Source: Methanobacteriota archaeon (lineage in GTDB: Archaea > Thermoplasmatota > Poseidoniia > Poseidoniales > Poseidoniaceae). Taken from it: DNA of 64,000 bases. The stretch spans positions 38,146 through 102,145 of the forward strand of contig PSPT01000003.1 in assembly GCA_004195635.1 (NCBI GenBank), in the 5' to 3' direction. Both the position numbers and the translations under genes were made by a program. Positions 36,570 through 52,381 of the stretch are shown in pieces (positions within the stretch are counted from its first letter, which is position 1; every line of letters begins with the position of its first letter). The notes under the pieces are model-generated. The model searched no databases. It was not told where the DNA came from and saw only the letters and a program-made list of their open reading frames with translations.

Positions 36570-39500
36570 TTATATTCTTCTAACCCATTGGAAGGTTGTT
36601 TGATCTCGAGCATGCCACATTCCTGAACCTACGGGGTATTCCATCCATTCATTTCCGTCTGAACGAACTTCACCGGTCATGTTTGCAGTAGGTGTAGTTG
36701 GAGTCATGGCTTGATCTGAAGCAGTTGGCATCATTACTGCATGAGCGGTTTGGGCAACAGGTCTGCCAAAGGCATCAACTTGCTGAGCAGGTTGGACTGG
36801 CTGGGCATAGGCAGGTTGGACTGGCTGGGCATAGGTAGGTTGGGCTTGCGCACCATAATCCCCGGCTACTTGCTCGGCATACATTTCTTCCTCCCAACTA
36901 TCATCATCATCATCATCATCACCCCGCCGCATTATTGTAAATAGCATAATTAGTACTACTGCAATGATGACAAGAACGACTCCAATGATGGCTAGAGTCG
37001 TCGTTGACATTCCAGCAATTCCATCGGAATCGCCAAACAATCCACCAGATGAGGTTCCATTTCCTCCTCCATCATTATTATCCTCAATTTCAATTATCAT
37101 TTCTGGCGGGCAGCCAAGCCACTCAATTGCAGTAGAGGTGCCGTAATTATCGGGACATACATCAGCATCAAGCCCAGTAGTATTATCACCAAATCCATCA
37201 CCATCGGCATCGGCCCATTGAGTTACATCAGTTCTAAAGGCATCAGCCCCGTTGGTTGTAAACCAAGTCAATCCATCGGGGTCAGAATAACCATCGCCAT
37301 CAGTATCAACACAACCTTCTCTATCCTCGGAAGAAGTACCACTTTGGTTTGGACAGGCATCCTTTGAATCACCAATTCCATCACCGTCTATATCTCGGTA
37401 ATCATCTACATCATTAGGGAAGGCATCGAGAACATCAGCATAACCATCGTCATCGGTATCTCGGCAACCATAGAATTCATCCTTCCAAGAACTACCAAAT
37501 TCCAAAGGACAAGCATCCTGCATATTTGCAAGGAATAAATACTCGCCAGGCCAATTTTCATTTCTAGTGACTTGCCAAGACTCATTTCCAAAATTGTCTC
37601 CATATCCATCTTCATCAAAGTCGGTCCACTGGGTTGAATCATTAGCAACTGCATCTGCTCCATCCTCAACTAACCAAAATGAATCTGGGTCGGAATAACC
37701 ATCGGAATCCATATCTGGGCAACCCCATCTGTCATCAATCGAAGAACCGGCATCATTCGGGCAATCATCTGGACGAATCCCATCTTGGTTATCACCAAAC
37801 CCATCACTATCACTGTCTATCCACTGAGTTGAATCAAGAGGAAGGGCATCTTCACTATCTGCCCATCCATCTCCATCTCCGTCTAAACAACCATCCAAGG
37901 TTCCGTTATTGGAGGACCCAAATACATCTGGGCAATCATCTGTGATGTTGGCCCAGCCATCACCATCATCGTCGGGGCAACCGAGGTAAGCACCGAGGCT
38001 AGAATTTCCGGCCTCGTCAGAACAAGCATCAGAAGAATCATTGACGCCATCACCATCATCATCCGAATCTTCATCTGCATCACGACAACCATCACCATCA
38101 ATGTCAGATGAAGGCTCACTGACCCACACTGGACGTTGCAATATGGCATGATCCCAATTACTCTTAGGACAGGAATCGTTTGTGTCTTCAACATTATCAT
38201 TGTCATCATCTAAATCTTCATTTAAGTCGCGGCAACCATCTAAATCCCAATCGGTAGAAGTGTTTTTATCAAGTGGGTCTGAATCTGAAATCCAGCCGAT
38301 CTCGCCTTGTGGGCAATCGTCACCGGAATTATCAAGGATTGTGTCATTATCATCATCATAATCACATGCATCACCATCTAAATCCTGATCTAAATCTTCC
38401 TGCAAGGGGTTTGCATCATTTGGACAATTATCTAAATCATCTGGGATTCCATCTCCATCAGCATCAGCAGCGAGAAGACCTGATGAACTCCAAATATAGG
38501 GGTTGATAGAAGCCAATGCGGTTTGTGAACCAGAATTTGTTGAACTGAAATCAATACTGCCACTGAATGTGCCAACAATAGAAATATTCCCTCCATTATC
38601 AACTGCAATATCAGCAGCATTATTATCTGCACTTGAATTTGCTCCAAATGCGGAAACCCATGAACCTGAATTGGAGATAATAGCCAAAGCACTATCGTTT
38701 GCACCTTGGGAACTGATTGTGTCGGGCCCGAGAGTAATTGAACTTGCACTGGAAATTGACAGAACGCCATTGTCTGACATTGGGTCAACAGCGACATCGG
38801 TGACGCGGTCGTAAGTACTACCTCCAACAAGAGCAGACCAACTCCAAGTGTTTGGAGTTGCAAGTTTTGCAACCCACCCACTCGTATCCCCGCCAGGTGA
38901 ATTGAGGGTAGTGGAACCAAAAGTAATGCTCGAAGTGAAAGTCCCCCCGAGGAATAAATCGCCGTTTGTAAATTCATCAATTCCATAGATAAAACTGTCC
39001 GCTCCAGAAATCGACATCGCTGATTTCCATGCTCCAGTGGAATCAATTTGCGCAAGAACTGGAGTTGAATCACCAGGTGTTCCGGTAACTGAATGGGAGC
39101 CGAAATTCATATTTCCATCAAAGGTACTCGAAATCCATGTATCTCCATTTGATTCCATATACATCGCTTGAGTTTCTTGGAATGCAGGACCTCGCGCTTC
39201 AGCAGTCCACTGTAGACTACCTGATGAAGCATATTTGGCAACGAAAATTTCAGCATCATCTCCGCTTGTTCCGCCGCTATCTACTGCTGTTCCTACATCG
39301 GTATTGCCGATGAATAGTCCCGACACCACAACGCCTGAATTGGATGCTACAATAGCAGTTGGCCATACTGCATCAAGAGTTGTTACTGTCGTACCATCAT
39401 AATCACCATTTCCTTGCAATGCACTTGCCCATTGCCATTGACCAGCAGAGTTGGCCTTTGCAGTATATGTATCATAATAACCAGTCGAGGTAAGGCTATG

Positions 39501-40061
39501 GCTACCAAAATCAATTGTACCATAAAACATACCAGTCACATACATATCTCCGTTTGCCGATACTGCGATACCAGATAGAGTTGATTCAGAATTAGTTCCA
39601 GCACCAACTCCAGTTTCAGCCGTTTCAGCCCATTGCCAATTGCCCGATGAATCAGATTTGCCAAACCATGGTTGAATATAATTTGCTGAAGAAACTGCAT
39701 TTGGACCGAGGGACAATGAAGAACTACCACTAAATATTCCTGCGGAATATATGTTTCCAGAGACTGGCTCAACTGCAACGGCACTGCCCACTGCAGGGGA
39801 TGAACTAGCTCCAATATCAGACCAGCCCGCAATAGCACGGGCGCCTGAGCGAGCAGCAGCAAAAGAAGAGGAATCAAGAGCAGTGATACTACTTCTGTCA
39901 TCACTTGTAACTGGCGAGTCCACAGAATCTAGAGAGAAGGTTGAACTATCGTCCGAAAAGAAGGCAAAATTAGCCAAAATACTTGTGAGTAATAGTAAAG
40001 TAAGAACACCTGCAATTCCAGTTCGGCTGGTTGCCTTTGGAGTTTGAATAGAGGTCGCCAT
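36570..40061 (-). CDS. Giant exported surface protein with SBBP-type beta-propeller repeats, thrombospondin-type-3-like Ca-binding repeats, a C-terminal TM anchor and a cytoplasmic poly-Asp plus QPxYAQPV-repeat tail
   Basis: N-terminal signal (GIAGVLTLLLLTSILANFAF). Repeats of the form G.FxG.IDFGS...S.G..D.YVAK (SBBP-like). Multiple DxDxDGxxDxxDxCP units (TSP3-like). TM helix LAIIGVVLVIIAVVLIMLFTI followed by RRGDDDDDDDSWEEE and YAQPVQPAYAQPVQPAQQ. The track start is 40106; an internal Met at 40061 precedes the signal peptide. Confidence 0.75.
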   Translation of the reverse strand: MATSIQTPKATSRTGIAGVLTLLLLTSILANFAFFSDDSSTFSLDSVDSPVTSDDRSSITALDSSSFAAARSGARAIAGWSDIGASSSPAVGSAVAVEPVSGNIYSAGIFSGSSSLSLGPNAVSSANYIQPWFGKSDSSGNWQWAETAETGVGAGTNSESTLSGIAVSANGDMYVTGMFYGTIDFGSHSLTSTGYYDTYTAKANSAGQWQWASALQGNGDYDGTTVTTLDAVWPTAIVASNSGVVVSGLFIGNTDVGTAVDSGGTSGDDAEIFVAKYASSGSLQWTAEARGPAFQETQAMYMESNGDTWISSTFDGNMNFGSHSVTGTPGDSTPVLAQIDSTGAWKSAMSISGADSFIYGIDEFTNGDLFLGGTFTSSITFGSTTLNSPGGDTSGWVAKLATPNTWSWSALVGGSTYDRVTDVAVDPMSDNGVLSISSASSITLGPDTISSQGANDSALAIISNSGSWVSAFGANSSADNNAADIAVDNGGNISIVGTFSGSIDFSSTNSGSQTALASINPYIWSSSGLLAADADGDGIPDDLDNCPNDANPLQEDLDQDLDGDACDYDDDNDTILDNSGDDCPQGEIGWISDSDPLDKNTSTDWDLDGCRDLNEDLDDDNDNVEDTNDSCPKSNWDHAILQRPVWVSEPSSDIDGDGCRDADEDSDDDGDGVNDSSDACSDEAGNSSLGAYLGCPDDDGDGWANITDDCPDVFGSSNNGTLDGCLDGDGDGWADSEDALPLDSTQWIDSDSDGFGDNQDGIRPDDCPNDAGSSIDDRWGCPDMDSDGYSDPDSFWLVEDGADAVANDSTQWTDFDEDGYGDNFGNESWQVTRNENWPGEYLFLANMQDACPLEFGSSWKDEFYGCRDTDDDGYADVLDAFPNDVDDYRDIDGDGIGDSKDACPNQSGTSSEDREGCVDTDGDGYSDPDGLTWFTTNGADAFRTDVTQWADADGDGFGDNTTGLDADVCPDNYGTSTAIEWLGCPPEMIIEIEDNNDGGGNGTSSGGLFGDSDGIAGMSTTTLAIIGVVLVIIAVVLIMLFTIMRRGDDDDDDDSWEEEMYAEQVAGDYGAQAQPTYAQPVQPAYAQPVQPAQQVDAFGRPVAQTAHAVMMPTASDQAMTPTTPTANMTGEVRSDGNEWMEYPVGSGMWHARDQTTFQWVRRI
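36787..36850 (-). repeat. 24-bp perfect tandem repeat (2 exact copies plus a degenerate third) encoding the cytoplasmic QPAYAQPV repeat
   Basis: gcaggttggactggctgggcatag occurs at 36787-36810 and again at 36811-36834, followed by gtaggttgggcttgcg. Confidence 0.85.
36899..36922 (-). repeat. (ATC)7 trinucleotide microsatellite encoding the poly-Asp stretch
   Basis: tcatcatcatcatcatcatc seen directly. Confidence 0.8.
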
Positions 40062-40210
40062 GTGTTGCCGTGGAGGTTTTAGGTGTTGAAACCTACCCTT
40101 TCGCAATTTTGATAATTATCTGCAATAATAAACAGTGAAGCCAATAATGGATAATTTTTCAACCTTCAAAGAAAGGAAAAATCCACCCCTCATCCAAAAG
40201 ATGGCAGGAA

Positions 40211-41241: not shown

Positions 41242-41541
41242 TCACTCGAGATTTGTAGCCAAGGAAAGCAAATCACTTTTTCCAGCATCAAGGATACAGA
41301 GAGTGCTTACCGAGAAAGGTTTAGCACAAGCAGTTCCAAGGTCACGGTTGACCATTAGAACGCGGTGCTTTACCACATCAGGGTGGCGTGCGTGTAACTC
41401 ATCGATGTAATCTTGAGGGCAATTTGCTGCCAAAATTACAAGTTTTGCTTCGCCTCGTGCACATGCATCCATTGTTTGACGCTGTCCGAAAAGTAGTGAA
41501 CCACTACTTATTGCTGTCTTTAGTTGTCTTGTCATATCCAT
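41242..41541 (-). CDS. rpl30e: Ribosomal protein L30e
   Basis: About 99 aa with KLVILAANCP and LGTACAKPFSVSTLCILD motifs characteristic of the L30e/L7Ae fold. Canonical position downstream of rpoA''. Confidence 0.9.
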   Translation of the reverse strand: MDMTRQLKTAISSGSLLFGQRQTMDACARGEAKLVILAANCPQDYIDELHARHPDVVKHRVLMVNRDLGTACAKPFSVSTLCILDAGKSDLLSLATNLE

Positions 41542-41587: not shown

Positions 41588-43150
41588 TCAGTTCTCCCGA
41601 GGGACATAGTACAGTTCAACACTACCTGTTCCCAAAGAGATTGGCTGACCAACAATGATGTTTTCTGCAACACCAGTTAAGCGATCACGCTCTCCTACAA
41701 TTCCTGCTCTTAGCAAGTGATTAACAGTAACTTCGAAAGCAGCACGGGCAAGAATACTGTGCTTTGTTCCAGACACACCGTGGCGGCCGATTGCTCGGAC
41801 TGCACCTTCGCTGGTCATTACATCAGCGACCATCAACAAGTGGCGGTCATCAACTTCCAAACGGGCTCCTTCAAGCGTCAACTTCAATTCATTTACTATT
41901 GCTTGACGAGCGGCTTCAATACCCAAGAAATCATAAATTTCCATGATATTATTTGTATATGTACGGCTTCGGTCAATTCCATCCATGTCAGAAACGCGGG
42001 TGAGATTACTTCCTATAGTAGAGAGATAATACTCACCTGTTTCATCATCAAGTTGAACATTGGCTCGTTGAATACTTGGGACGCCTTTTAATCGCAGGTC
42101 CTTTACCTTGTCTTCAAGTTGGAGCAATTCTGTATAAGAAGGGATTACATCTTTATCAGATTCAGTTTGTCGTCCTGGAACGATTGTCAATACCTTTGGA
42201 TTGCTTTCCTTATCTGCTTCGATGTAAAGGCGGAGGGCACGACCTAACTTGTCACGGACTTCGTCAGCAGTCATATTTCTCTGCTTCAGATTTCCCTTGT
42301 GCAGGTTCAAAACCAAACGGCGTTGTGCTACGTCGGTATTTAAGTCGGCAATATTCTTTGTAAGAGTTACTTCAAGTGCTGCTGCCATTTTCTTGGCTTC
42401 AAGTGCATTCTTTGAATCATCTTCAGATCTCTTTGAATCATCCAAATAAATTGTCATTGTTGGAGTCTGTGGTATCTTTCGAGCATCAACAACTTCGATA
42501 ATACGAGGCAAACCTTGAGTCACGTTAACTGTCGCAACACCCGCATAGTGGAAAGTACGCATAGTCATCTGAGTACCGGGTTCTCCAATTGATTGTGCTG
42601 TAAGAATTCCTGCTGCTTCGTGCGGGTCAATACGTGCGCGAGCAAAAGCAACTCGGGCTTGCTCAATGATAGATTCAGCCTGCTTCTTGGTAATCTTGAC
42701 CTTGTCTCTAGCAATAACTGCCTTTGTTAGGTCTGATAGAACTCGCTCGGTTAACATTGGGCTACCGGTGGCTTCATCAGCCTTTTCAAGGGCATTGAAA
42801 ATGGGGTTTTCAACAAATTCATGCAAATTTCCAATCATCTTTCGCTCATAGTCATAGGACTCCAACTCCTGCTCCACCTTAGGGCGAACAGTTCGTCGCT
42901 TTCGTCGGCGAACGACAGTAAGATTTCCTCCATCAATTGAACTTGAACGGGCAGACTTGGTTGCATTAACAATAATTTGATGCACCTTTGCAGCAGTTTC
43001 GCTATCTGTTTCGCAGATTTTTGCGATTTCCTGAGCAGTAAGAACTTTTACATTATCCCACTTTCTGTCATCTGCAAGAAGATGAGCAAATTCTTCAGGT
43101 ACAAGCATATCCATTAGTTTCTTCTTGGTTGCACTCTTTACTACCATCAA
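41588..43150 (-). CDS. rpoA2: DNA-directed RNA polymerase subunit A'' with an extra N-terminal domain of about 120 aa
   Basis: Conserved A'' core [28 protein letters not shown], and so on to the C-terminus. The core starts at about residue 185 instead of about 60. The N-terminal extension is paralogous to the N-terminus of the RpoH gene product (see findings). Confidence 0.95.
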
Positions 43151-46100
43151 ACTTCACCTCCATCGGTTTCTGCTGGGCTATCCTCATAACCGCCAAGGTC
43201 ATCTTCATCGCGGTTATATGAATCACGTTCTTCGGAACGCTTCTTTGGGCCAATTACTTTATCGATAATTACATCAAAGTTAACGGGGTTACCGTGGTTA
43301 GAACGAGTTGGGTCGATACCATCCTCTCCGTATTCGAATTGAATGATACGATCTGCGGTATTTCGTACCGACAACTTTTCATCCTTGAAAACTTTTAAGT
43401 CATCCATTGCGTTAATTAGACGGCGTTGCATATAACCAGACTTACTGGTACGAACCGCAGTATCAACTAACGATTCACGACCTGAAACTGAAAGCATAAA
43501 GAATTCAGTAGGCTGCAAACCACGTTTGAAGGAACTGCTGATGAAACCTTTTTGTCGAGCTCCTTTGTCTCCTCGCTTGAAGTGTGTCAGTACACGGTCT
43601 TGGTATCCGCGCTCTAATCTCTTTCCACGCACCTTTGCCTGACCAATAGAACCAGCCATCATGGTCAAGTTGTCCATTGAACCACGAGCGCCAGAAACAG
43701 CCATGCTAACTGCAGCGTTATCTTCGCCGCTTGCGAGTAATTCTTCCTTCGCAACATCACCAGTTTTTCCCTTTTGCTTGTCAAGAATCATCATGATGTT
43801 TTCCTCAAGAGTTTCCTTTAAAGTGCGGCCAGGACGGGCTTCATAACCTCTTCCGGTTTTTCCGTACTTTGCCATTTCCTCTCTTACGAGTTCACGAGCA
43901 TCTTCATTGATTTGCTCAATTTGTTCAAGAGCACCAGGAGTTAAATCCTCATCATCAATACCTGTTGTGAAACCTAACGCAGTACATGCAGCAATAGTGA
44001 TTTTTGTCATTTCGTTGAGGAATTTTGCACCTTCGTCTGGTCCATTTGTTTGAACAACAGCATCCAATAGACTTCCATCTTCAGCACCAATCGCTCTCTT
44101 GTCAAGAGTACCTGAAAGGCTGCGGCCGTTAACCACAACTTCCTCTCCACTTCGATTATTAAATCGTAGACTGATGTTTTCGGGAACAATTAGGCCTAGC
44201 AGATCGTGTCCACTAAATCCCTTTACTCCTTCCTTTAGAATCATCTTTGGCATTTTTCCTACATAGCCGATTCTTCCGATGATTTCCATAGCAGTTGATT
44301 CATCAACCCAAGTGTCGCCGCGTGTAAGTAGGTAAGCACCAGAAATGTGGTCGTGTATTCCACCAATTACTGCTCCACCATAACGGGGGGTTAAGATGTG
44401 TTCTTGGACTCTCATCAAAATTTGAGCCTCAGCACGGGCCTCTTCTCCCTGAATAACGTGCAAATTCATCTCATCACCATCAAAATCCGCGTTGTATGGA
44501 GTACATACTGCTAGATTGAAACGGAATGTTCTACCTGGCATTACACGAACTTCGTGAACCATCATAGACATTCGGTGTAGAGATGGCTGCCGGTTAAAGA
44601 TAGCAACATCACCATCGATTAGGTGACGTTCAACGATTAGACCGGGCTTTGGCAAACCATCTTGATCTACAGTAGATAGACGGTCATCTGTTCGTGAAGG
44701 GAAACCATTAGTTTCAGGTGAACCACAGTGAGGGCAAGTAACTTCCAAATGTTCAGGATAGTCGTCATCTGGATTAGCCAAATCCCACTTCCAGCGATAG
44801 TGCAAGATAGCACGAGGGTCTTCTTCGGGGAGAATCTGACGCTTGTCATCTTCACCACGGAGGTTTAGTAGAGTTGCCTTTTCGTCAACAATAAAGTAAT
44901 CCTCAGACTCTGGCTCTCCACCAATAGTAGTTTCAACCCGGCGAGTCATCTGTTTGATAACAAGTCCTGGTAGGAAGTTAGGTGCAGGTAGAACGCTGTG
45001 AAGGTCATGGCGCAATGTTGTTTCTTCCATGCAATCTGGGTTGAAACAACGGAAACCGGAATTGATTAGACGGCTGCGGTCATTAATTCTCACACGGCGA
45101 CCATCATTTCGAAGAACATAGTTTACACCTGGGTGCTTTTCTGGACCCTTGAAAATCATCTGGCGCAATTCCTCTCGGTTACGGCGGGTAACACGAATAG
45201 GCACAGTAAGTTCACGGGCAACCCATTCAGGTACACCTACTTCGTTGATGCTTAGGAATGGGTCTGGTGAGATAACAGAACGGGCACAGAAATTAACACG
45301 CTTACCGGACAAGTTACTACGGAAACGTCCTTCCTTACCTTTGAGACGTTGTGTGAGCGTCTTTAATGGGCGGCCAGAACGGTGTCTGGCCGGTGGGATT
45401 CCACTTGTTTGGTTGTCAAAGTAAGTTGTAATGTGGTATTGCAGTAATTCCCACAAATCCTCAACAATTAGTTGCGGAGCACCAGCATCACGATTTTCAC
45501 GAAGGCGCTGATTAATTCGAAGAACGTCAACTAACTTGTGAGTCAAATCATCCTCAGAACGGTCTCCACTATCTAGGGTGATAGAAGGTCGAACTGTAAT
45601 TGGTGGTACTGGTAATACCCGCATTACAACCCATTCAGGGCGGTTTGAACGGTCCATGCCGAGGAAGATTAGGTCATTTGGTGGAATTCGTTCCAGCCAT
45701 TCACGAACATCGCGAGCATTTAATTTCTTTTCAGTGATCTTGCTTGCTCCCTTTACATCCATCTTTTCCTTGAAAGTTGTTGGCTTATCCAATTGAATCT
45801 TACCTTGGCTTGCTCCGCAATGCATACAAACCGCACGCTTTGCAGAGGCGGTTAACTTCTCAATATCCTTAATCGCCTTGGCGAATTCTTTAGAACCTAC
45901 ACCGTGCTTCAAATTGACATCATTCACTCGGGCTCGGTAGTAATCTTGCTCAGATAATTCAGGATTTGAAGGGTGAGTTCCTGCTGCTTCGTGCAAAAGA
46001 ACACGGCTACAAACATTACAAGTCACCTTTAGAGCAGTCTTGATTAGATTCACGAAACCGATGTGAGTGACTGGAAGTTCAAGTTGGATGTGCCCAAAGT

Positions 46101-46332
46101 GACTAGGGCATTCATCGTACTTATTTCCACATGTATCACAACGAATCCCCGGCTCAATAACACCCATCTTAGGGTCCATCAATCCTTGGCGGAATGCATG
46201 TCCGTCATCTTTGTAAGTATCTGCTGTCTTAACTTCAACTGCAGACATTTTACGGATTTCATTTGGGTCCATTAAGTTGAACCTAATGCTTGAAATTCGC
46301 TTTGGAATCATGGTAATTGAACTTTGCTTCAT
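43147..46332 (-). CDS. rpoA1: DNA-directed RNA polymerase subunit A' (1061 aa, with acidic C-terminal extension)
   Basis: N-terminal zinc-binding clamp [17 protein letters not shown] and the catalytic [10 protein letters not shown] motif. The stop overlaps the rpoA'' start (ATGA). Confidence 0.95.
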
Positions 46333-49300
46333 CTTGAATCCTCCAGCTCTAAGCGCATGGCCACACCTAACGATTTCATTTCGTCAAGTAATAACTTAAA
46401 TGCGTAAGAAGTTTGTACTTCGTGAACTTCAGCACCTGGGCCGAGTACCGGTGACACATAGGTGCGTCTTCGCCAATCATACCAAGCGATATGCCCAGAT
46501 TCTGAACATACCAGCAATTTTTCTCCATCCGACTGATCGAGTAAACGGTCCTTGATGACCATTGATGCGCCGTGAGCAATCAAACAATCACGCTCCATTT
46601 CACCAAATCTTAGTCCACCCTGACGAGCACGACCTTCTGTTGGTTGACGAGTTAGGATTTGCACACGACCACGGCTTCTAGCGTGGATTTTACTGCTTAC
46701 CATGTGGTGCAACTTCTGATAATAAATGACACCAACAAAAATATCTACGGGGTATGCCACTCCAGTTTCACCATTTATCATGACTTCACGACCAGTGTGG
46801 TTGAAGCCATTTCGCACTAATCCTTCACGGAGGCTGGTTTCCTTCTCACCGCGGAACGCAGTTCCATCGATGAAGCGTCCTTCAAGACTACCTACTTTGC
46901 CAGCAATCATTTCCATTACGTGAGCAACAGTCATTCTACTTGGGATAGCGTGAGGATTGATAATTAGGTCTGGGATGACTCCATCTCGAGTGAAAGGCAT
47001 ATCCTCTTGATTGACCAAGCGACCAATAACTCCCTTCTGTCCGTGACGACTAGAGAATTTGTCACCTACTTCAGGAATCTTATGTGAACGAACGGTTAGG
47101 CGTACGAGGCGTCCGCTATCCAAACTCTCAGTGAGATAAACATTGTCAACATAGCCCTTTTCACCATGGCGAATTGCCATGGAAGATTCACGTCGTTCTT
47201 GGGCTTGTAAGAAGGCACCAGCGCCGGTTTCTTCGAGGAAACGAGGAGGGCTTGTCTTTCCAACAACAACATCTCCGCCTTCGAGATAAACTTCCGGGGT
47301 CGGCAATCCATCATTTTCAAGGTGTTCATAGCAGCTAAGGGGTTTTAATCCCTTGATTTCTTCCTTCCCTGTTCCGGGAATTTCAATTTCATCGACTTGT
47401 CCACCTGGGAATCTACGGCGTTCAGCATTGTATGTACGCATGAAGGTTGAACGGCCCATTGCACGGTCAATACTTGACTTATTCATTGCAACTGCGTCCT
47501 GCATGTTATATCCGTGGTGAGACATAATAGCGACAACGAAATTCTGACCTCCGGGGCGCTCATTGAAGTTTGTAGTCTTCATAGCACGAGTTTGCGTAAT
47601 GGAACGTTGTGGGTAGTGGAGTAAGTGCATTCGGGTATCTGGGCGAAGGCGGTAGTTTGCACTCGGCAAACCAAGACTCTGCTTGACCATTGCTGTACCA
47701 CCAGTAACACGTGGGGTAGAATTGTGTTCGGGGTAAGGAATTAGACTTGCACAAACTCCAAGAATTAGTTGAGGGTCAATTTCAACGTGAGTGAACTCAC
47801 TGTCAAAGTTTAGAGGTAAGGAAAAAGATTCCTCTACCCATTCACCATTTGAAAGTTGAACTTTTGCAGTAACCTTTGCTTCAGTAGCGCCATCTTCACC
47901 AAGATTATCCCAACGGACATTCTCAGGAGCGATTGGGCGCTTCAACTTGGGAGTCAAATTAGGAAGATTGAATGGTTTAGGTGAAACATAGAGATCTTCT
48001 TCTTCCTCAGCATCAATCCACTCTACTATACCCTTGTGTAGAAGATCACGGAAGGTAATTTCACCAGCCTTTAAACCTTCCAAATCATCATTTGTGAGTA
48101 AGGGTGAACCATCGCGAAGAATCAATAATGGGCGCAGAATACGTCCCTTGTCAGTACTAATGAAAATATCACTGTTTGCAGCATCATAACGAATACTTAC
48201 TTCAGGGCGGATTGCTCCACGACGACGTGCATTCTTGAATTGGCGAACTAAACTTTTACCGCGCTTGTGGACTCCGTAAATGTCACCATTCACGTGAACA
48301 CGGTCTCCATCAGTCCAGTCCTCTGGCTGGAAAACATCGAATTCGTCTAGTTGTTCACGAACTTCCTCAACATTTGCTTCTTCTGAGATATCAACCATCA
48401 AAGCAGCATTCTTTACAAGACCACAGTTCTGTCCTTCAGGGGTTTCGTTGGGACATAGGCGACCCCATTGTGTTGGGTGCAAATCACGTGCTTCAAAGTG
48501 AGGTTGACTGCGAACAAGGGGGCTTGTTACGCGACGCATGTGGCTCAATGCCGAGGTATAGGTAGTTCTGTCAAGTAATTGACTGACACCACTTCGTCCA
48601 CCGACCCAGTTACCTGTTGCCAGTGCATGCATAATTTTGGAAGTCAAAACATCTGGGCGTAAACAGGAAGTGATTTTCAATTCACGCTTTCGGTTGTGGT
48701 GGCGCTCAAGTTGGTACTTCAAATCACGAGCAAGTTGGTTAAGTGAAACACGGAATAAGTCCTCGAATAAGTCACCTGCAAGACGAACACGCTTGTTTGC
48801 ATAGTGGTCTTTATCATTTGGCCCTTTGTCTGAAATAGCCATATCCAATACTTGGCGGACGATACGTCCTAGGAATACTGCCTTTTTCTTTCGGTCTTCA
48901 TAATCGCCACCTAGGTGAGGTAGTAATTCACGGTCAAGTAGTTGGGCAACTCTTGCTTCACGGTATTCTTTCTGCTGTCCAGCAGCGAATTTCTTCTCAA
49001 GCCATTGATGAGCATCATCGGTAGATTCTACTTCATATTCCTTGTTGTCCTTCACTTCGTTGATGTTTGCTACGATGAACTTGAAGGTTTCAGTTTCTCC
49101 AGCAATAGCTTGGAAAATCTCCTGGTCATTCTCAATACCAAGCGCACCCATCAAAAGCACAACTGGTATTGCAGTAGTCCCTGCAGTGCTGATTTTAACC
49201 ATCAACATACCATCACGGCGCTTTTCAACAGAAAGTGGTTTTCGCACACCATCTTTTTGTGAGAATATCTTAGCCATCTCGGTCTTCTTCTTGTATCTCT

Positions 49301-49928
49301 TATTGAGTTCAACAGTAACTCGGTTTGGCGCTAAGTCTTCCATTGAAATGAGAACTCTTTCTGTTCCATTGATAATGAAATATCCACCTTGGTCAAGAGG
49401 ATCTTCTCCTTTTTCTCTCCAAAGGCGGAAAGCAGTTTCCTTGTCATCTTCATTTGTATTAGGATGCAAGACGCGGTCATTTAGCAAGTGAGAGGGGTGT
49501 AGGTTACAACGGCGGCTTCGCACCATGGTTGGTAAATTACCAATAGCAACTCCTTTTTCAACAGGAGATGGGATTCCATCACGGAAAATAGTGAAATCAA
49601 TTGTAACTGGAGACATGTATGTCAACTTTCGCAGTCGGCATTCCATTGGTGAAGAATCGTGCTCACTACCGTTTGCTTCTCGGATAACTGGAGAACCAAG
49701 TGTAATGTTACGTAGGCGAATAAATATTTCTTGGTCGATTACGTCGAGTTTGATAACTCCACCTTCTTCATCCTCAAAAATATCGTCGGTACCAACACGG
49801 ATTCCACGAACAATCCTTTCCATTCTGGAATTGCGGTTGCTACTTGAGGGTATACAGTCATCGTATGACGCTACTTGGTGGTTCACTAGTGAACGCTCTT
49901 TGAAATATGCTTCAATAATTTCTTGCAT
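46329..49928 (-). CDS. rpoB: DNA-directed RNA polymerase subunit B (unsplit, 1199 aa)
   Basis: Rpb2-type motifs throughout (GQKGVIGRLV..., C-terminal Zn-site region). B' and B'' are fused in one ORF. The stop overlaps the rpoA' start. Confidence 0.95.
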   Translation of the reverse strand: MQEIIEAYFKERSLVNHQVASYDDCIPSSSNRNSRMERIVRGIRVGTDDIFEDEEGGVIKLDVIDQEIFIRLRNITLGSPVIREANGSEHDSSPMECRLRKLTYMSPVTIDFTIFRDGIPSPVEKGVAIGNLPTMVRSRRCNLHPSHLLNDRVLHPNTNEDDKETAFRLWREKGEDPLDQGGYFIINGTERVLISMEDLAPNRVTVELNKRYKKKTEMAKIFSQKDGVRKPLSVEKRRDGMLMVKISTAGTTAIPVVLLMGALGIENDQEIFQAIAGETETFKFIVANINEVKDNKEYEVESTDDAHQWLEKKFAAGQQKEYREARVAQLLDRELLPHLGGDYEDRKKKAVFLGRIVRQVLDMAISDKGPNDKDHYANKRVRLAGDLFEDLFRVSLNQLARDLKYQLERHHNRKRELKITSCLRPDVLTSKIMHALATGNWVGGRSGVSQLLDRTTYTSALSHMRRVTSPLVRSQPHFEARDLHPTQWGRLCPNETPEGQNCGLVKNAALMVDISEEANVEEVREQLDEFDVFQPEDWTDGDRVHVNGDIYGVHKRGKSLVRQFKNARRRGAIRPEVSIRYDAANSDIFISTDKGRILRPLLILRDGSPLLTNDDLEGLKAGEITFRDLLHKGIVEWIDAEEEEDLYVSPKPFNLPNLTPKLKRPIAPENVRWDNLGEDGATEAKVTAKVQLSNGEWVEESFSLPLNFDSEFTHVEIDPQLILGVCASLIPYPEHNSTPRVTGGTAMVKQSLGLPSANYRLRPDTRMHLLHYPQRSITQTRAMKTTNFNERPGGQNFVVAIMSHHGYNMQDAVAMNKSSIDRAMGRSTFMRTYNAERRRFPGGQVDEIEIPGTGKEEIKGLKPLSCYEHLENDGLPTPEVYLEGGDVVVGKTSPPRFLEETGAGAFLQAQERRESSMAIRHGEKGYVDNVYLTESLDSGRLVRLTVRSHKIPEVGDKFSSRHGQKGVIGRLVNQEDMPFTRDGVIPDLIINPHAIPSRMTVAHVMEMIAGKVGSLEGRFIDGTAFRGEKETSLREGLVRNGFNHTGREVMINGETGVAYPVDIFVGVIYYQKLHHMVSSKIHARSRGRVQILTRQPTEGRARQGGLRFGEMERDCLIAHGASMVIKDRLLDQSDGEKLLVCSESGHIAWYDWRRRTYVSPVLGPGAEVHEVQTSYAFKLLLDEMKSLGVAMRLELEDSR

Positions 49929-49940
49929 CTTAATTCCTCC

Positions 49941-50564
49941 TTAATTTGTTCCCTCTACGATAAGGCGGTAAGCCACTGAAGTGCCTGCAGAAGGGCTCTT
50001 GCGAATCACTCGCAAAACTCGGTCGGCTAACCATCCAGCAGGGAGTGGGGTGTGCCCCTCATCTTCCAGCGATTTTGCCATGTCTTCCTTTTCGGCTATT
50101 TCTTTGATCACTTGAATGACGGGGTCGGTCATTAGGATCTTTGGGAGTAATTCTTTTCGCAGGCGATGCTCGCCTGTTTCCTCATCTATTTCACCGAGGT
50201 TCCATGGTGCTAGTGCATCTTCTTCCTCTTCCTCAGGAACCAATTCTTGATGAGGGACGATTACGTGATTAAGAACATTAAACTTGGTAAGCCCCATTGG
50301 GAAGTCATCAATGTCAACTGCGCGCGCATTGATAGTAATTTTCTTGGATGCCTTTTTACGGCGGTTAGTGGTAAGTTCACGAATAACATTCATGATGTTT
50401 GCAAAGCGGTCATCTTCTTTGCTCATTCCAACGGCTTTTGCGACCTCGTCAATTGACATCTGCTTGATATCAGCCATGTTTCGATCAGTAGCGAGTTTGT
50501 GAGCGTGTTCCTCAGCAATCCCCATTTCTTGCAGTCGCTTTTTTGTTGCGCTCTTTACCACCAT
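49941..50564 (-). CDS. rpoH: DNA-directed RNA polymerase subunit H (Rpb5-like) with N-terminal extension of about 100 aa and an internal insertion
   Basis: C-terminal region FNVLNHVIVPHQELVPEEE...LPKILMTDPVIQ...RVLRVIRKSPSAGTSVAYRLIV matches RpoH/Rpb5 (HxLVPxH and ...R.S.tAG..v.YR). Typical RpoH is about 80 aa; this ORF is 207 aa. Confidence 0.9.
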   Translation of the reverse strand: MVVKSATKKRLQEMGIAEEHAHKLATDRNMADIKQMSIDEVAKAVGMSKEDDRFANIMNVIRELTTNRRKKASKKITINARAVDIDDFPMGLTKFNVLNHVIVPHQELVPEEEEEDALAPWNLGEIDEETGEHRLRKELLPKILMTDPVIQVIKEIAEKEDMAKSLEDEGHTPLPAGWLADRVLRVIRKSPSAGTSVAYRLIVEGTN

Positions 50565-50615
50565 TTTGCTAACCCCAATACCCTTCTCGTCACCGGCCTG
50601 TATCCCAGCCAGAAG

Positions 50616-50689
50616 CGGGCCTGACGGGGTTCGAACCCGCGACTAACCGGTTAAAAGCCGGTTGCTCCACCTGGCTGAGCTACAGGCCC
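50616..50689 (-). tRNA. tRNA-Lys (anticodon UUU)
   Basis: Minus-strand GGGCCTGTAGCTCAGCCAGGTGGAGCAACCGGCTTTTAACCGGTTAGTCGCGGGTTCGAACCCCGTCAGGCCCG. Anticodon loop CUUUUAA (UUU), T-loop TTCGAAC. It lies 51 bp upstream of rpoH on the same strand. Confidence 0.9.
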
Positions 50690-50878: not shown

Positions 50879-52381
50879 ATGGTTAGACATAGTCTTTTCA
50901 CAAACTCAGAGGTTGAACGAGAAAGAGAAATCTTGCAATCTAGGGGTAGGAAAGTCATCTGGTTGACACCCGATAATCAGGAAATAGAGGCTCAAATACC
51001 CCCCACGACCTACCCCCCGAGAAAGGACACCTCAATGCTCGCCGAAGCGATTTTTTCTTTGGGTGAAGGAAGGGGGCGAAAAATGCTTGAAATCGGTTGT
51101 GGAAGTGGAGTAATAGGCACTTGGGCAAATCAAAGAAATTGGCGATGTTCGGCTTGTGATATTAACCCGTATTCTGTAGCCGCAACTAGGGCATTATTCA
51201 GCAACTACGGATTCCCTCCAGAAATGGTCCGAGAAGGAGGGCCAGGTGAAGGAGCGAACTCTGCTTGGGCTGGAGATGAAAATTACGACCTTATCGTCTG
51301 GAATTTACCTTATATGAGTCCACCCCAAAATGCCACGGAATTACTTGGACCTCTCGAAGAATCAGCATTGCTTGACCTTGAAAAGGACGGCACTGATTCG
51401 CTATTGCTCAACTCACTCCAAACTATTGAACCTAACTCAGCAAGCATTTCGCACACTAAAACCCAGCACCCAACCGCAGCAGATGCCCTCAACATCTCAG
51501 CCTCTGCACAAACCCAGCAAACCTCATTCAAGGGAAGTCGATTGCTTGCAAAAGGTGGCTTGATATTATTAGTTCACTCATCAAATGAAAACGGACGAAG
51601 AATATCTGGGAAATGGGCCAAAAAGGGTTGGGCGAGTAAAATCATTCATTCAACTTCTTTTGCAGATGGAGAAGAATTGTTTGTTTTGGCTCTTTGGCGG
51701 GCTTTTTCTGAGGCCCGAGTAGAACGCGTTGATTCAATTGATTCTACCAATCGCTACTTACTGGAAAAGGGTGGTCGACTCGGAAGCAGGATCTGTGCAA
51801 TCCAGCAAACGGAAGGCCGCGGCATGTCAAACAATAAGTGGGATACAAGAGATGGAAGTTTTGCTTGCTCTTGGGTTTTACATGATGGAATGCAAACTCA
51901 ATTCAAACCTGGGCAGGCGCAATTGCTCGCAGGCCTAGCCACTCTAAAGGCAATAAACTTCCTTACCGATGACACAGGCGGTACAAAAAAAGAGGGCGTT
52001 TTCAAAGGAATTGAAATATTCCAAAAATGGCCGAATGACATTTGGTCAAAACACGGAAAGGTAGCAGGAATTCTCATTGAAGGGCGCTCGGATGGGACAA
52101 AGCAAACTATCGTCTTAGGAATCGGCGTCAACCTATGCGAAATAGCAAGCGGCCCCTCATCTGCATACTCCAAGCAAAATACTGCGCATGAACACAAATA
52201 CCCTCATGATTCTTTGCAAAATATGCCACCCTCGCCAGTTATTTTGAAAATCCCCCACTGCAAATTCTACCCACAGAAAAGGAAAATATTATCCCACAAA
52301 CCGACATTAGTTTCATCGCTGAAAAAGCACAGATTTTTTCCAACATTACACACTACTTGCACCATCACTCTAAACCTATGA
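50879..52381 (+). CDS. Fusion protein: N-terminal HemK/PrmC-like SAM-dependent methyltransferase domain plus C-terminal biotin--protein ligase (BirA-like, BPL_LplA_LipB) catalytic domain
   Basis: N-terminal half: LEIGCGSGVIG (SAM motif I) and YDLIVWNLPYM ([ND]PPY-type motif IV). C-terminal half: VDSIDSTNRYL, QTEGRGMSNNKW (degenerate GRGRxGRxW) and KWPNDIWSKHGKVAGILIEG (the KWPND...GK.aGIL.E BirA signature). Single uninterrupted 500-aa ORF. Confidence 0.7.
   Translation: MVRHSLFTNSEVEREREILQSRGRKVIWLTPDNQEIEAQIPPTTYPPRKDTSMLAEAIFSLGEGRGRKMLEIGCGSGVIGTWANQRNWRCSACDINPYSVAATRALFSNYGFPPEMVREGGPGEGANSAWAGDENYDLIVWNLPYMSPPQNATELLGPLEESALLDLEKDGTDSLLLNSLQTIEPNSASISHTKTQHPTAADALNISASAQTQQTSFKGSRLLAKGGLILLVHSSNENGRRISGKWAKKGWASKIIHSTSFADGEELFVLALWRAFSEARVERVDSIDSTNRYLLEKGGRLGSRICAIQQTEGRGMSNNKWDTRDGSFACSWVLHDGMQTQFKPGQAQLLAGLATLKAINFLTDDTGGTKKEGVFKGIEIFQKWPNDIWSKHGKVAGILIEGRSDGTKQTIVLGIGVNLCEIASGPSSAYSKQNTAHEHKYPHDSLQNMPPSPVILKIPHCKFYPQKRKILSHKPTLVSSLKKHRFFPTLHTTCTITLNL

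Follow-up and report, generated by a model that had tools for sequence, protein, structure and literature searches.

The window, a stretch of 64,000 nucleotides from a Poseidoniales (marine group II) archaeon, carries on its minus strand a cluster of RNA polymerase genes in which rpoB and rpoA' (43147..49928) sit between rpoH and rpoA'' in one operon. Each of the two flanking genes encodes an additional N-terminal domain (Table 1). According to Pfam labels the gene order rpoH-rpoB-rpoA'-rpoA''-L30e is also present in contigs L090-L094. The rpoA'' reading frame is listed from a TTG but its true start is likely the ATG at 43147. This ATG overlaps the rpoA' TGA stop codon by one base, its A, and has a Shine-Dalgarno sequence 6 nt upstream; an rpoA'/rpoA'' junction with an overlap or a 1-nt gap recurs in L090, L093 and L094.

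Table 1. Polymerase genes, start signals and predicted protein regions in the window
Feature	Position	Strand	Details
rpoH	49941-50564	minus	207 aa (ORF list)
RpoH N-terminal five-helix domain (predicted)	50367..50564	minus	residues 1-66; AlphaFold2, paralogy, conservation
RpoH basic flexible linker (predicted)	50289..50366	minus	about residues 67-92; sequence NRRKKASKKITINARAV...
RpoH canonical Rpb5-C core	49941..50288	minus	residues 93-207 plus stop
rpoB	46329-49928	minus	1199 aa, unsplit (ORF list)
rpoA'	43147-46332	minus	1061 aa (ORF list)
rpoA'' translation-start signals	43145..43161	minus	GGAGGTGA 43161-43154, ATG 43147-43145 (read from sequence)
rpoA''	41588-43150 as listed from TTG	minus	519 aa when counted from ATG at 43147
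RpoA'' N-terminal five-helix domain (predicted)	42950..43147	minus	residues 1-66 from ATG at 43147
RpoA'' basic linker	42815..42949	minus	about residues 67-111, ~45 residues; charge, precedes aligned A'' part
RpoA'' canonical body	41588..42814	minus	Rpb1 domain 5; Pfam and PDB phmmer

The RpoH subunits of M. jannaschii (1hmj) and T. kodakarensis (4qiw_H) comprise 78-82 residues, and their residues 3-5 pair with residues 93-97 of the Poseidoniales protein, which thus has an extension of ~90 residues. Pfam PF01191 matches residues 95-202 (E 3e-11, 43.4 bits against a gathering cut-off of 23.5). The earlier note on this DNA had assigned the canonical RpoH core to the last 100 residues or so; the core additionally holds two lineage-specific inserts, at about residues 123-134 and 154-181. 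In RpoA'', PF04998 covers residues 133-464 (E 4e-49, 167.9 bits, cut-off 28.5) and phmmer against the PDB aligns residues 128-514 with Sulfolobus A'' (2pmz_C, E 5e-88). Residue 128, opposite Sulfolobus A'' residue 17, is the first to align with solved A'' chains and the extension is ~111 residues long. The note had the A'' core begin at about residue 185. The trigger-loop motif SIGEPGTQM is indeed found at about residue 186, but homology to the solved chains already starts at residue 128.

Both proteins open with an identical MVVKSATKK, RpoA'' being counted from the ATG, and BLASTP aligns the two N-termini without gaps at 23 of 43 positions identical (53%) and 72% positives, with E 1e-10. When each N-terminus is compared with the six-frame translated window using tblastn the other copy is retrieved (E 8e-10 and 3e-10); there is no third copy in the window, the next matches having E > 0.3. 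The homology proposed from inspection of the letters is therefore upheld, and the two are true paralogues. The DNA of the two copies is 58% identical and synonymous differences are saturated (pS 0.78), so the likeness resides at the protein level and does not reflect a recent DNA duplication or gene conversion. Each paralogue also has its own conserved signature, ATDRNM.DIK in RpoH and ADDRKWDDVK in RpoA''.

Might the extensions be an annotation artefact, with the true starts at internal methionines such as Met90 of RpoH and the upstream sequence untranslated? One NCBI record with 100% identity (P0070) is indeed called from an internal methionine, as a 118-residue protein. Against this, of the 120 best RpoH homologues 101 are full-length and every one of these has the extension, as do 117 RpoA'' fragments. 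Residues 1-35, that is the N-terminal strand, helix 1, hairpin, helix 2 and connector helix, are the best-conserved part of RpoH, with a mean majority-residue frequency of 0.90 compared to 0.77 for the Rpb5-like core. Over codons 2-45 at 82 loci pN is 0.17 and pS 0.79. More than 100 homologues have an open, gap-free frame from Met1 onwards. The start of rpoA'' is linked to the stop of rpoA' and follows a strong Shine-Dalgarno sequence, and AlphaFold folds both stretches confidently. The conservation data led us to reject a wrong-start artefact, which is scarcely conceivable; judged by codon-level comparison both extensions truly encode protein and are subject to strong purifying selection. As to co-occurrence, a check that the earlier note suggested, the RpoH copy was accompanied by the RpoA'' copy in all contigs checked, namely that of the window and L090-L092, L093 and L094.

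AlphaFold2 monomer models place the same five helices in RpoH and RpoA'' (in RpoH residues 5-13, 18-25, 30-34, 38-45 and 52-66; pLDDT 81-86 in the full-length model). They suggest a lineage-specific domain of SAM-like or (HhH)2 fold, one copy on each of two single-copy subunits, in which two helix-hairpin-helix units are joined by a connector helix. In the RpoH model pLDDT falls below 50 at residues 68-80 and 88-98, and this linker is predicted to be disordered over about 30 residues; that of RpoA'' is equally basic. The HhH-like module suggested by the earlier note is thus borne out at the level of the predicted fold but not as membership of an HhH sequence family. The hairpins of (HhH)2 domains follow the consensus h-x-x-h-x-G-h-G-x-x-x-A and touch DNA phosphates through backbone amides. 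Here the second glycine of the GhG signature is missing throughout the members. Hairpin 1 reads LG[VI]xEE in most of them and MLVPEE, devoid of glycine, in RpoA'' of the window, and hairpin 2 reads LG[VI]SKD or CETDSET. In Pfam one of 26 members hits HHH_5 (PF14520; E 0.023) but none reaches significance, whilst a search of PDB sequences with the domain profile matched nothing relevant. Some features count against the docking role that we prefer below: the invariant basic residues could make up a patch that binds nucleic acid, both linkers have a strong positive charge, and DNA is bound by many proteins of neighbouring fold (Topo V, XPF, Hef, ligase, DisA).

An exhaustive HMM search found the domain in 209 of 1.84 billion representative proteins. 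Among the 150 best matches 56 have a non-polymerase partner sequence, counted only where it spans at least 70 residues, and single linkage sorts these tails into 29 families, 12 with at least two members. They include a TFIIB (TFB) cyclin repeat (PF00382, E 1e-5, in P0284) and an AAA_15/AAA_21 ATPase (P0288). In one family a C-terminal acidic stretch precedes a terminal GLGSLFG-COOH, with GFRGLGSLF occurring internally. The non-polymerase carriers are encoded on contigs of at most 17 kb, rich in orphan genes, with neighbours that include an AEP-primase-like gene, a complete TFB, a DNA methyltransferase, a 5'-3' exonuclease and a Cas4-like nuclease. These contigs look virus- or plasmid-like by gene content; searches of IMG/VR and of GenBank phage records did not retrieve the tag, so a viral nature is read from gene content only. 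A syntenic element (L095/L096) encodes an orthologue of a tagged protein without the tag, which indicates that the module comes and goes as a whole. MVVKSATKK is identical between the host subunits and these fast-evolving mobile-element proteins.

What might such a domain do? Its occurrence at the start of many non-polymerase proteins on virus-like contigs tips the balance towards a role in protein docking, and the domain has the look of a portable module for docking and not just of a clamp for DNA. Our preferred reading, held tentatively and with considerable doubt, is that the two domains are tethered docking modules in the manner of the bacterial alpha-CTD, with protein docking as the main job. 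As small, independently folded modules on flexible tethers they would sweep the space around the polymerase. Their anchor points on RpoH and RpoA'' we take, from Pol II architecture, to belong to the 'shelf' module by the downstream-DNA channel. A contact between A'' and RpoH is stated in PMC13257274. The domain might pair with another of the same fold, RpoH with RpoA'' or polymerase with factor; alternatively it might bind a common conserved partner. Any tag-bearing protein, those of mobile elements included, would thereby be brought to the polymerase. In the TFB-cyclin fusion the tag could stand in for the zinc ribbon, which normally recruits the polymerase. The basic N-terminal helix and basic linkers would probably add non-specific DNA or RNA contacts nearby. 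A bolder proposal, which we consider unlikely, is that the MVVKSATKK domain associates with itself and serves as an 'address tag': the host polymerase would show two on flexible arms, and viruses or plasmids of Poseidoniales would have copied the tag onto about two dozen different effectors (among them the TFB cyclin fragment, the ATPase and a protein with tails like those of the ribosomal stalk) that plug directly into RNAP and redirect or shut off transcription. If true, this would be a previously unseen route by which archaeal mobile elements take control of transcription, and the archaeal polymerase would have a natural system for recruitment in modular form.

The charge distribution bears on a different role, akin to the DNA contact suggested by the earlier note: a non-specific clamp in which (HhH)2-like domains and basic linkers hold the downstream duplex, or RNA, near the jaw as Rpo13 of Sulfolobus or the eukaryotic Rpb5 jaw might, the module having been reused by DNA-handling proteins of mobile elements. 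Lys4, Lys8, Lys9, Arg28 and Lys34, plus His22, are invariant, residues 1-12 carry a charge of +4 and the linkers average +4.2 (RpoH residues 63-90, 101 homologues) and +6.4 (RpoA'' residues 63-100, 24 homologues). Some tagged proteins adjoin DNA-metabolism genes, and RpoH is near the downstream DNA, with Rpo13 (PMC2675907, PMC2847245) as an earlier case of a helical, DNA-contacting addition that one lineage has placed next to RpoH. However, the phosphate-contacting GhG motif is degenerate or absent (in RpoA'' of the window MLVPEE, then ETDSETA in the second hairpin), and no HhH Pfam profile was matched. Acidic residues follow both hairpins and the five-helix domain as a whole is slightly acidic, with a net charge of -1.6 to -2.3; together with the unconserved glycines this argues against plain DNA binding. 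Nor would nine N-terminal residues be expected to stay invariant across paralogues and mobile-element proteins in a non-specific binder. We regard the clamp as somewhat unlikely, but as a serious competitor of the docking reading.

The strict pairing of the two copies in all contigs checked and their paralogue-specific signatures would fit a specific heterotypic pair, an intramolecular staple in which the RpoH and RpoA'' domains associate like XPF/ERCC1, mainly for assembly or stability of the polymerase, and take the place of the eukaryotic Rpb5 jaw, the mobile copies being incidental captures of 5' gene ends. According to PMC13257274, Rpb5 touches the largest subunit in its C-terminal portion. 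A long disordered RpoH tether is, however, needless in a fixed staple, and retention of the tag in 29 tail families, 12 of them with at least two members, and in the TFB cyclin fusion would go unexplained; this possibility is improbable. The tag could instead be an address for a target other than the polymerase, for example ribosomes or translation factors, which would couple transcription to translation, or a location on chromatin or at the membrane. In archaea the stalk of the ribosome contains aP1, which binds aEF1A and aEF2 and has a C-terminal signature, Leu103/Leu106/Phe107/Gly108 (PMC4267659), that the GLGSLFG-COOH ending of one tagged family matches. The resemblance is confined to one motif in a single family, and no ribosomal or translation protein with the tag occurs among the 209 matches, making such a destination very unlikely.

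We know of no model archaeon with two tethered interaction domains on its polymerase and, to our knowledge, few lineages have polymerase additions of their own such as Rpo13; these are informative on how transcription is tuned. We found no literature description of an N-terminal domain shared by RpoH and RpoA'', in line with the earlier view that it is not a described feature of the archaeal enzyme. PMC3906176, a paper on RpoH, states that the archaeal subunit is without an N-terminal extension. The literature picture is of a bare 80-residue Rpb5-C domain, from which the Poseidoniales subunit departs. The presence of the domain on many mobile-element proteins provides a testable handle on transcription regulation in Poseidoniales and on how their poorly known viruses or plasmids take over the host.

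Comparison with established domains sets this one apart. Identity to the (HhH)2 domains of XPF/ERCC1, Hef, FANCM/FAAP24 and Topoisomerase V and to the NusA acidic repeats is 11-18%, and profiles give no match; further differences are the degenerate GhG hairpins and the invariant N-terminal strand, which is without counterpart in those domains. The size and shape, a compact five-helix bundle of about 65-70 residues, resemble SAM domains, which are mainly eukaryotic, but Pfam gives no SAM_1 or SAM_2 match even at E up to 10.

Rpo13 is a separate small subunit with a helix-turn-helix, restricted to Sulfolobales and Desulfurococcales. It lies next to RpoH/Rpo5 as a helical addition whose highly basic tail is proposed to extend to the downstream DNA, and orthologues are absent from Euryarchaea (PMC2675907). 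The Poseidoniales domain is likewise a lineage-specific helical addition beside RpoH. Unlike Rpo13 it forms part of two existing subunits, consists of five helices and hangs on a tether instead of being wedged in. It occurs also on mobile-element proteins, and there is no sequence similarity to Rpo13. The N-terminal jaw of eukaryotic Rpb5 contacts downstream DNA and several transcription factors (PMC2675907, PMC13257274) and is an N-terminal extension in the same subunit family. The Poseidoniales fold, an all-helical bundle, differs and there is no homology: Pfam gives only PF01191 for the 207-residue RpoH with no match to PF03871, the eukaryotic Rpb5 N-terminal family. A paralogue is also present on RpoA''. 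The RpoH extension is an acquisition independent of the Rpb5 jaw.

The closest likeness in architecture is to the bacterial alpha-CTD, also a small helical (HhH)2-like domain, independently folded, with two copies per polymerase and a flexible linker (in Poseidoniales, from the RpoH model). The alpha-CTD is a contact point for DNA and regulators. It is C-terminal on a homodimeric subunit, whereas the Poseidoniales copies are at the N-termini of two different subunits of a Pol II-like enzyme in an archaeon; Pfam finds no match to PF03118 and hence no sequence relationship, and the Poseidoniales linker is strongly basic. The arrangement would represent an archaeal counterpart to the bacterial solution of recruiting factors with flexible arms.

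RpoH and RpoA'' of this Poseidoniaceae archaeon share an N-terminal domain of about 66 residues, hereafter the N-domain or tag. The earlier note had proposed that the two N-termini are homologous and the alignment bears this out, with 53% identity over 43 residues, ungapped, and an E-value of 1e-10. Searched against all six frames of the 64-kb window, each N-terminus matches only its counterpart. From the sequence, both subunits most likely begin MVVKSATKK. The ORF listing starts rpoA'' at a TTG and the ATG is the following codon; the A of this ATG is the final base of the rpoA' TGA stop and GGAGGTGA lies 6 nt upstream, which argues for the shared start. In alignments to solved structures, RpoA'' residue 128 corresponds to Sulfolobus A'' residue 17. 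For RpoH, whose counterparts in M. jannaschii and T. kodakarensis have 78-82 aa, residues 93-97 correspond to residues 3-5. The extensions measure approximately 111 and 90 residues, respectively.

Location of the polymerase genes, their neighbours and the tagged loci
Feature	Location	Strand	Detail
RNA polymerase operon	window 41588-50564	minus	archaeal
rpoH	window 49941-50564	minus	207 aa
RpoH core inserts	window 50163-50198, 50022-50105	minus	residues ~123-134 and 154-181, relative to M. jannaschii RpoH
rpoB	window 46329-49928	minus	unsplit, 1199 aa
rpoA'	window 43147-46332	minus	1061 aa
RpoA' insertion	window 44644-45069	minus	~140 residues (~422-563)
rpoA''	window 41588-43147	minus	519 aa
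L30e gene	window 41242-41541	minus	
ORF downstream of operon	window 36570-40106	minus	1178 aa
tRNA-Lys(UUU)	window 50615-50689	minus	50 nt upstream of rpoH ATG, same strand
MTS/PrmA-like and biotin/lipoate ligase fusion	window 50879-52381	plus	divergent from rpoH
Same fusion in relatives	L090 8226-9689; L093 8205-9743; L094 1579-3066		contigs with the polymerase operon
Carrier contig L081	1-8412		
Carrier-related contigs L095, L096	1-12119; 1-17586		syntenic with L081
P0282	L083 1884-5762		1292 aa, largest tagged protein; tag and 1230 residues with no Pfam match
Gene after P0282	L083 5759-6958		
P0301	L084 283-960		
P0284			tag and one TFIIB cyclin repeat (PF00382, E 1e-5)
P0285			tag and zinc ribbons
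P0288			two C2H2 fingers, tag, AAA_15/AAA_21 ATPase

Are the extensions genuine? Every full-length protein in the set of 120 top RpoH homologues (57-100% identity) has the extension from the same Met, as do 117 RpoA'' sequences from theirs. Residues 1-35 of RpoH are more conserved than the Rpb5-like core (0.90 against 0.77 in a 30-sequence alignment), and codons 2-45 across 82 loci give a pN of 0.17 against a saturated pS of 0.79. These conservation data rule out an internal start codon, a concern of the earlier note, and we give an artefact of that kind practically no credence. The same note had allowed for unrelated low-complexity sequence; this too is discarded, given models in which both copies are predicted to fold confidently. 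Recent gene conversion between the copies is ruled out by the saturation of synonymous sites. The duplication is old, since the two copies in the window share only 58% identity in DNA. The paralogues also differ in a conserved signature, which is ATDRNM.DIK for RpoH and ADDRKWDDVK for RpoA''.

Both extensions co-occur, as the earlier note had suggested should be surveyed, in every contig long enough for checking. This holds in a divergent lineage where RpoH reads MVVKSSTKKRLIELGVPEDHAHRLADDANMDAIK and the RpoA'' N-terminus is retained. From GTDB genomes, the scan covered 80 loci of RpoH type, those nearest the query, each with 3 kb of flanking sequence. Named relatives are all Poseidoniales (marine group II) or unclassified Euryarchaeota/Thermoplasmatota MAGs, and one GTDB contig, labelled 'Methanobacteriota archaeon SI053_bin59', matches the RpoH N-terminus at 100% identity. 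Two GTDB contigs with this archaeal rpoH, L006 and L009, are filed as bacteria (Yoonia sp. and Deltaproteobacteria bacterium) and are probably mis-binned or contaminants.

Public gene calls for this RpoH are inconsistent, and the identical protein is listed in several versions. The database protein P0001 has three extra residues (MSKMVVKS), P0070 starts at an internal Met and is entered as a 'hypothetical protein' of 118 aa, and 195-aa forms start at M12. Frameshifts truncate many RpoA'' entries from contigs of 0.18-1.9 Mb (P0135, P0166, P0175, P0186, P0210, P0234), probably through long-read assembly errors. Several tagged database 'proteins' end in translated sequencing-adapter sequence (…CLLYTSPSPRDRTRSRMPSSA).

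The gap between tRNA-Lys(UUU) and rpoH has no obvious AT-rich promoter and the two may be co-transcribed. The divergent neighbour of rpoH is a conserved fusion of a small methyltransferase domain with a domain of the biotin/lipoate ligase family. Enzymes of the PrmA type methylate lysines and protein N-termini; connecting the fusion with the invariant lysine-rich N-terminus would be pure speculation. The ORF downstream of the operon encodes many Asp-rich repeats of calcium-binding type (DxDxDGxxDxxD) and a C-terminal transmembrane segment, and its L093 homologue gives a weak thrombospondin type 3 match. The product is likely a cell-surface protein.

An AlphaFold2 model of RpoH, built from the full RpoH alignment, places helices at residues 5-13, 18-25, 30-34, 38-45 and 52-66 with pLDDT of 81-86, followed by a linker (68-98, pLDDT below 50) and the Rpb5-C fold. 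The RpoA'' domain modelled alone has the same five helices (mean pLDDT 80.8). The suggestion in the earlier note that the domain resembles a helix-hairpin-helix (HhH) module holds for the fold, on the strength of these models, but not for the sequence. A Pfam scan of 26 domain sequences with E-values up to 10 returned only scattered, non-significant HTH or HhH matches, HHH_5 once at 0.023 and a few HTH models at similar levels. A profile of the domain found nothing relevant among PDB sequences, and Foldseek found no match to the domain model with E ≤ 0.001 among viral predicted structures (BFVD). At the sequence level the N-domain thus stands as a separate family. Its GhG hairpins, the phosphate-binding elements, are degenerate, with LG[VI]xEE at hairpin 1 (MLVPEE in RpoA'' of the window) and LGxSKD or CETDSET at hairpin 2. 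The domains are slightly acidic overall (net charge -1.6 and -2.3), the first 12 residues carry +4, and the linkers are strongly basic (+4.2 in RpoH, +6.4 in RpoA'').

The polymerase displays other changes. The RpoA' insertion, relative to Rpo1N of P. furiosus and T. kodakarensis, falls at their residues 399-409 and contains two Cys pairs (CFNPDC ... CPHCG) with only a weak zinc-ribbon match. This insertion and the acidic tail at the RpoA' C-terminus are further lineage-specific elaborations. The second RpoH core insert is modelled as a long helix (148-167), and one RpoH subgroup (216 aa) has an additional nine-residue insert after VPHQELV.

A HMMER profile of the 66-residue domain gave only 209 matches at E ≤ 0.001 among 1.84 billion representative proteins. 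Many are one or other of the two subunits, whole or in fragments, and on megabase contigs several of the RpoA'' entries are frameshifted calls. In 56 of the best 150 matches, a partner sequence of at least 70 residues is dissimilar to both polymerase subunits. These form 29 single-linkage families, 12 with at least two members. Nearly all have the domain at the extreme N-terminus, starting MVVKSATKK, and in many tagged proteins the profile match is limited to residues 1-45. Two entries, P0283 (547 aa, domain near the C-terminus) and P0299, are apparent chimeric or frameshifted calls and were excluded as evidence. Homologues of the TFB-cyclin fusion P0284 were found in only two clusters, P0282 has no PHROG match, and several families of 120-340 residues contain no known domain. 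The gene after P0282 encodes an HCxxGxxR(T) phosphatase-like motif and has a PHROG match annotated thymidylate synthase.

One tagged family (P0301, P0297, P0303 and P0365; 210-225 aa) has an internal GFRGLGSLF, and its C-terminus is an acidic stretch followed by GLGSLFG-COOH. This tail matches the C-terminal L103/L106/F107/G108 signature of aP1, the archaeal ribosomal stalk protein that binds aEF1A and aEF2 (PMC4267659). The tail may thus mimic that of the stalk; no ribosomal stalk gene for comparison was found among the retrieved sequences.

The tagged non-polymerase proteins (carriers) were found only on contigs of 17 kb or less, whereas polymerase genes are also present on far longer ones, exceeding 1 Mb. 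Carrier contigs are crowded with orphan genes on the same strand, and L097 is 17 kb of orphans. L081 encodes an AEP-primase-like protein (PF01896, E 4e-5, below cut-off), a WYL_2/phrog_2267 protein and a complete TFB with zinc ribbon and two cyclin repeats (phrog_20431, E 6e-49); L084 has a 5'-3' exonuclease gene. To this set L095 and L096 add genes for a DNA methyltransferase and for a Cas4-like nuclease, as well as one weak match of tail-fibre type. Elements of the L081/L095/L096 type are about 17-32 kb or longer. The family-1 protein is tagged in L081 whilst its L095/L096 orthologue lacks the tag and starts MDYQEWYWWTPFD; a metagenome scan with the family-1 tail recovered two loci only. One member of the P0282 cluster derives from a TARA 0.1-0.22 μm size fraction.

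In IMG/VR viral contigs, neither a profile-guided scan nor a pair of degenerate DNA patterns for MVVKSATKK(KLMD) produced a confirmed match; tblastn of the tag against 50,697 GenBank phage records gave none, and the L081/L095/L096 element is absent from both collections. Two papers on magroviruses describe nothing resembling the tag. On these grounds we reject known magroviruses and take the carrier contigs to represent mobile elements of a viral or plasmid-like kind, as yet uncharacterised. Their host is most probably Poseidoniales, the basis being only the shared domain and habitat.

How might the N-domain work? The polymerase carries two paralogous modules that fold independently, and a basic linker comes after each; the RpoH linker is modelled as disordered. 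The strongest constraint is on the first 35 residues and the module is portable onto unrelated proteins. In the Pol II architecture the A'/A'' split lies within the Rpb1 'foot', which together with Rpb5 constitutes the 'shelf' module. RpoH/Rpb5 makes contact with the C-terminal portion of the largest subunit (PMC13257274), and two papers position it near downstream DNA (PMC2847245; PMC2675907). With linkers of 30-45 residues and this shared position, both domains could reach one another, and also the downstream DNA channel along with factors bound at that site.

We tentatively favour a tethered docking module akin to the bacterial alpha-CTD. The same fold class docks in NusA-AR2/alpha-CTD, XPF/ERCC1 and SAM heterodimers, and nine invariant N-terminal residues persist in mobile-element proteins despite their fast evolution. 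The tag of P0284 sits in place of the TFB zinc ribbon, which normally recruits the polymerase. A plain DNA or RNA clamp would be consistent with the basic patch and basic linkers, as well as with the DNA binding of many fold neighbours; the hairpins, lacking the DNA-binding signature, argue for docking instead, and we consider the clamp less likely. That the domains serve as a fixed staple between RpoH and RpoA'' seems distinctly improbable, and a connection with some other machinery, for instance the ribosome, has a slimmer chance still.

The N-domain has several parallels. The nearest functional analogue is the bacterial alpha-CTD, the nearest by position are Rpo13 of Sulfolobales and the eukaryotic Rpb5 jaw, and by structure the SAM and (HhH)2 domains; the N-domain is a sequence member of none of these. 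One paper on RpoH states that the archaeal subunit is without N-terminal extensions (PMC3906176), and a survey from 2026 of how small subunits vary among archaeal polymerases deals with Rpo6 and Rpo8, mentioning neither Poseidoniales nor the N-domain (PMC13257274). We therefore rate the N-domain as a lineage-specific accessory domain on the polymerase, a known kind of feature in a new variant. The part that could prove really new is its mimicry by mobile elements.
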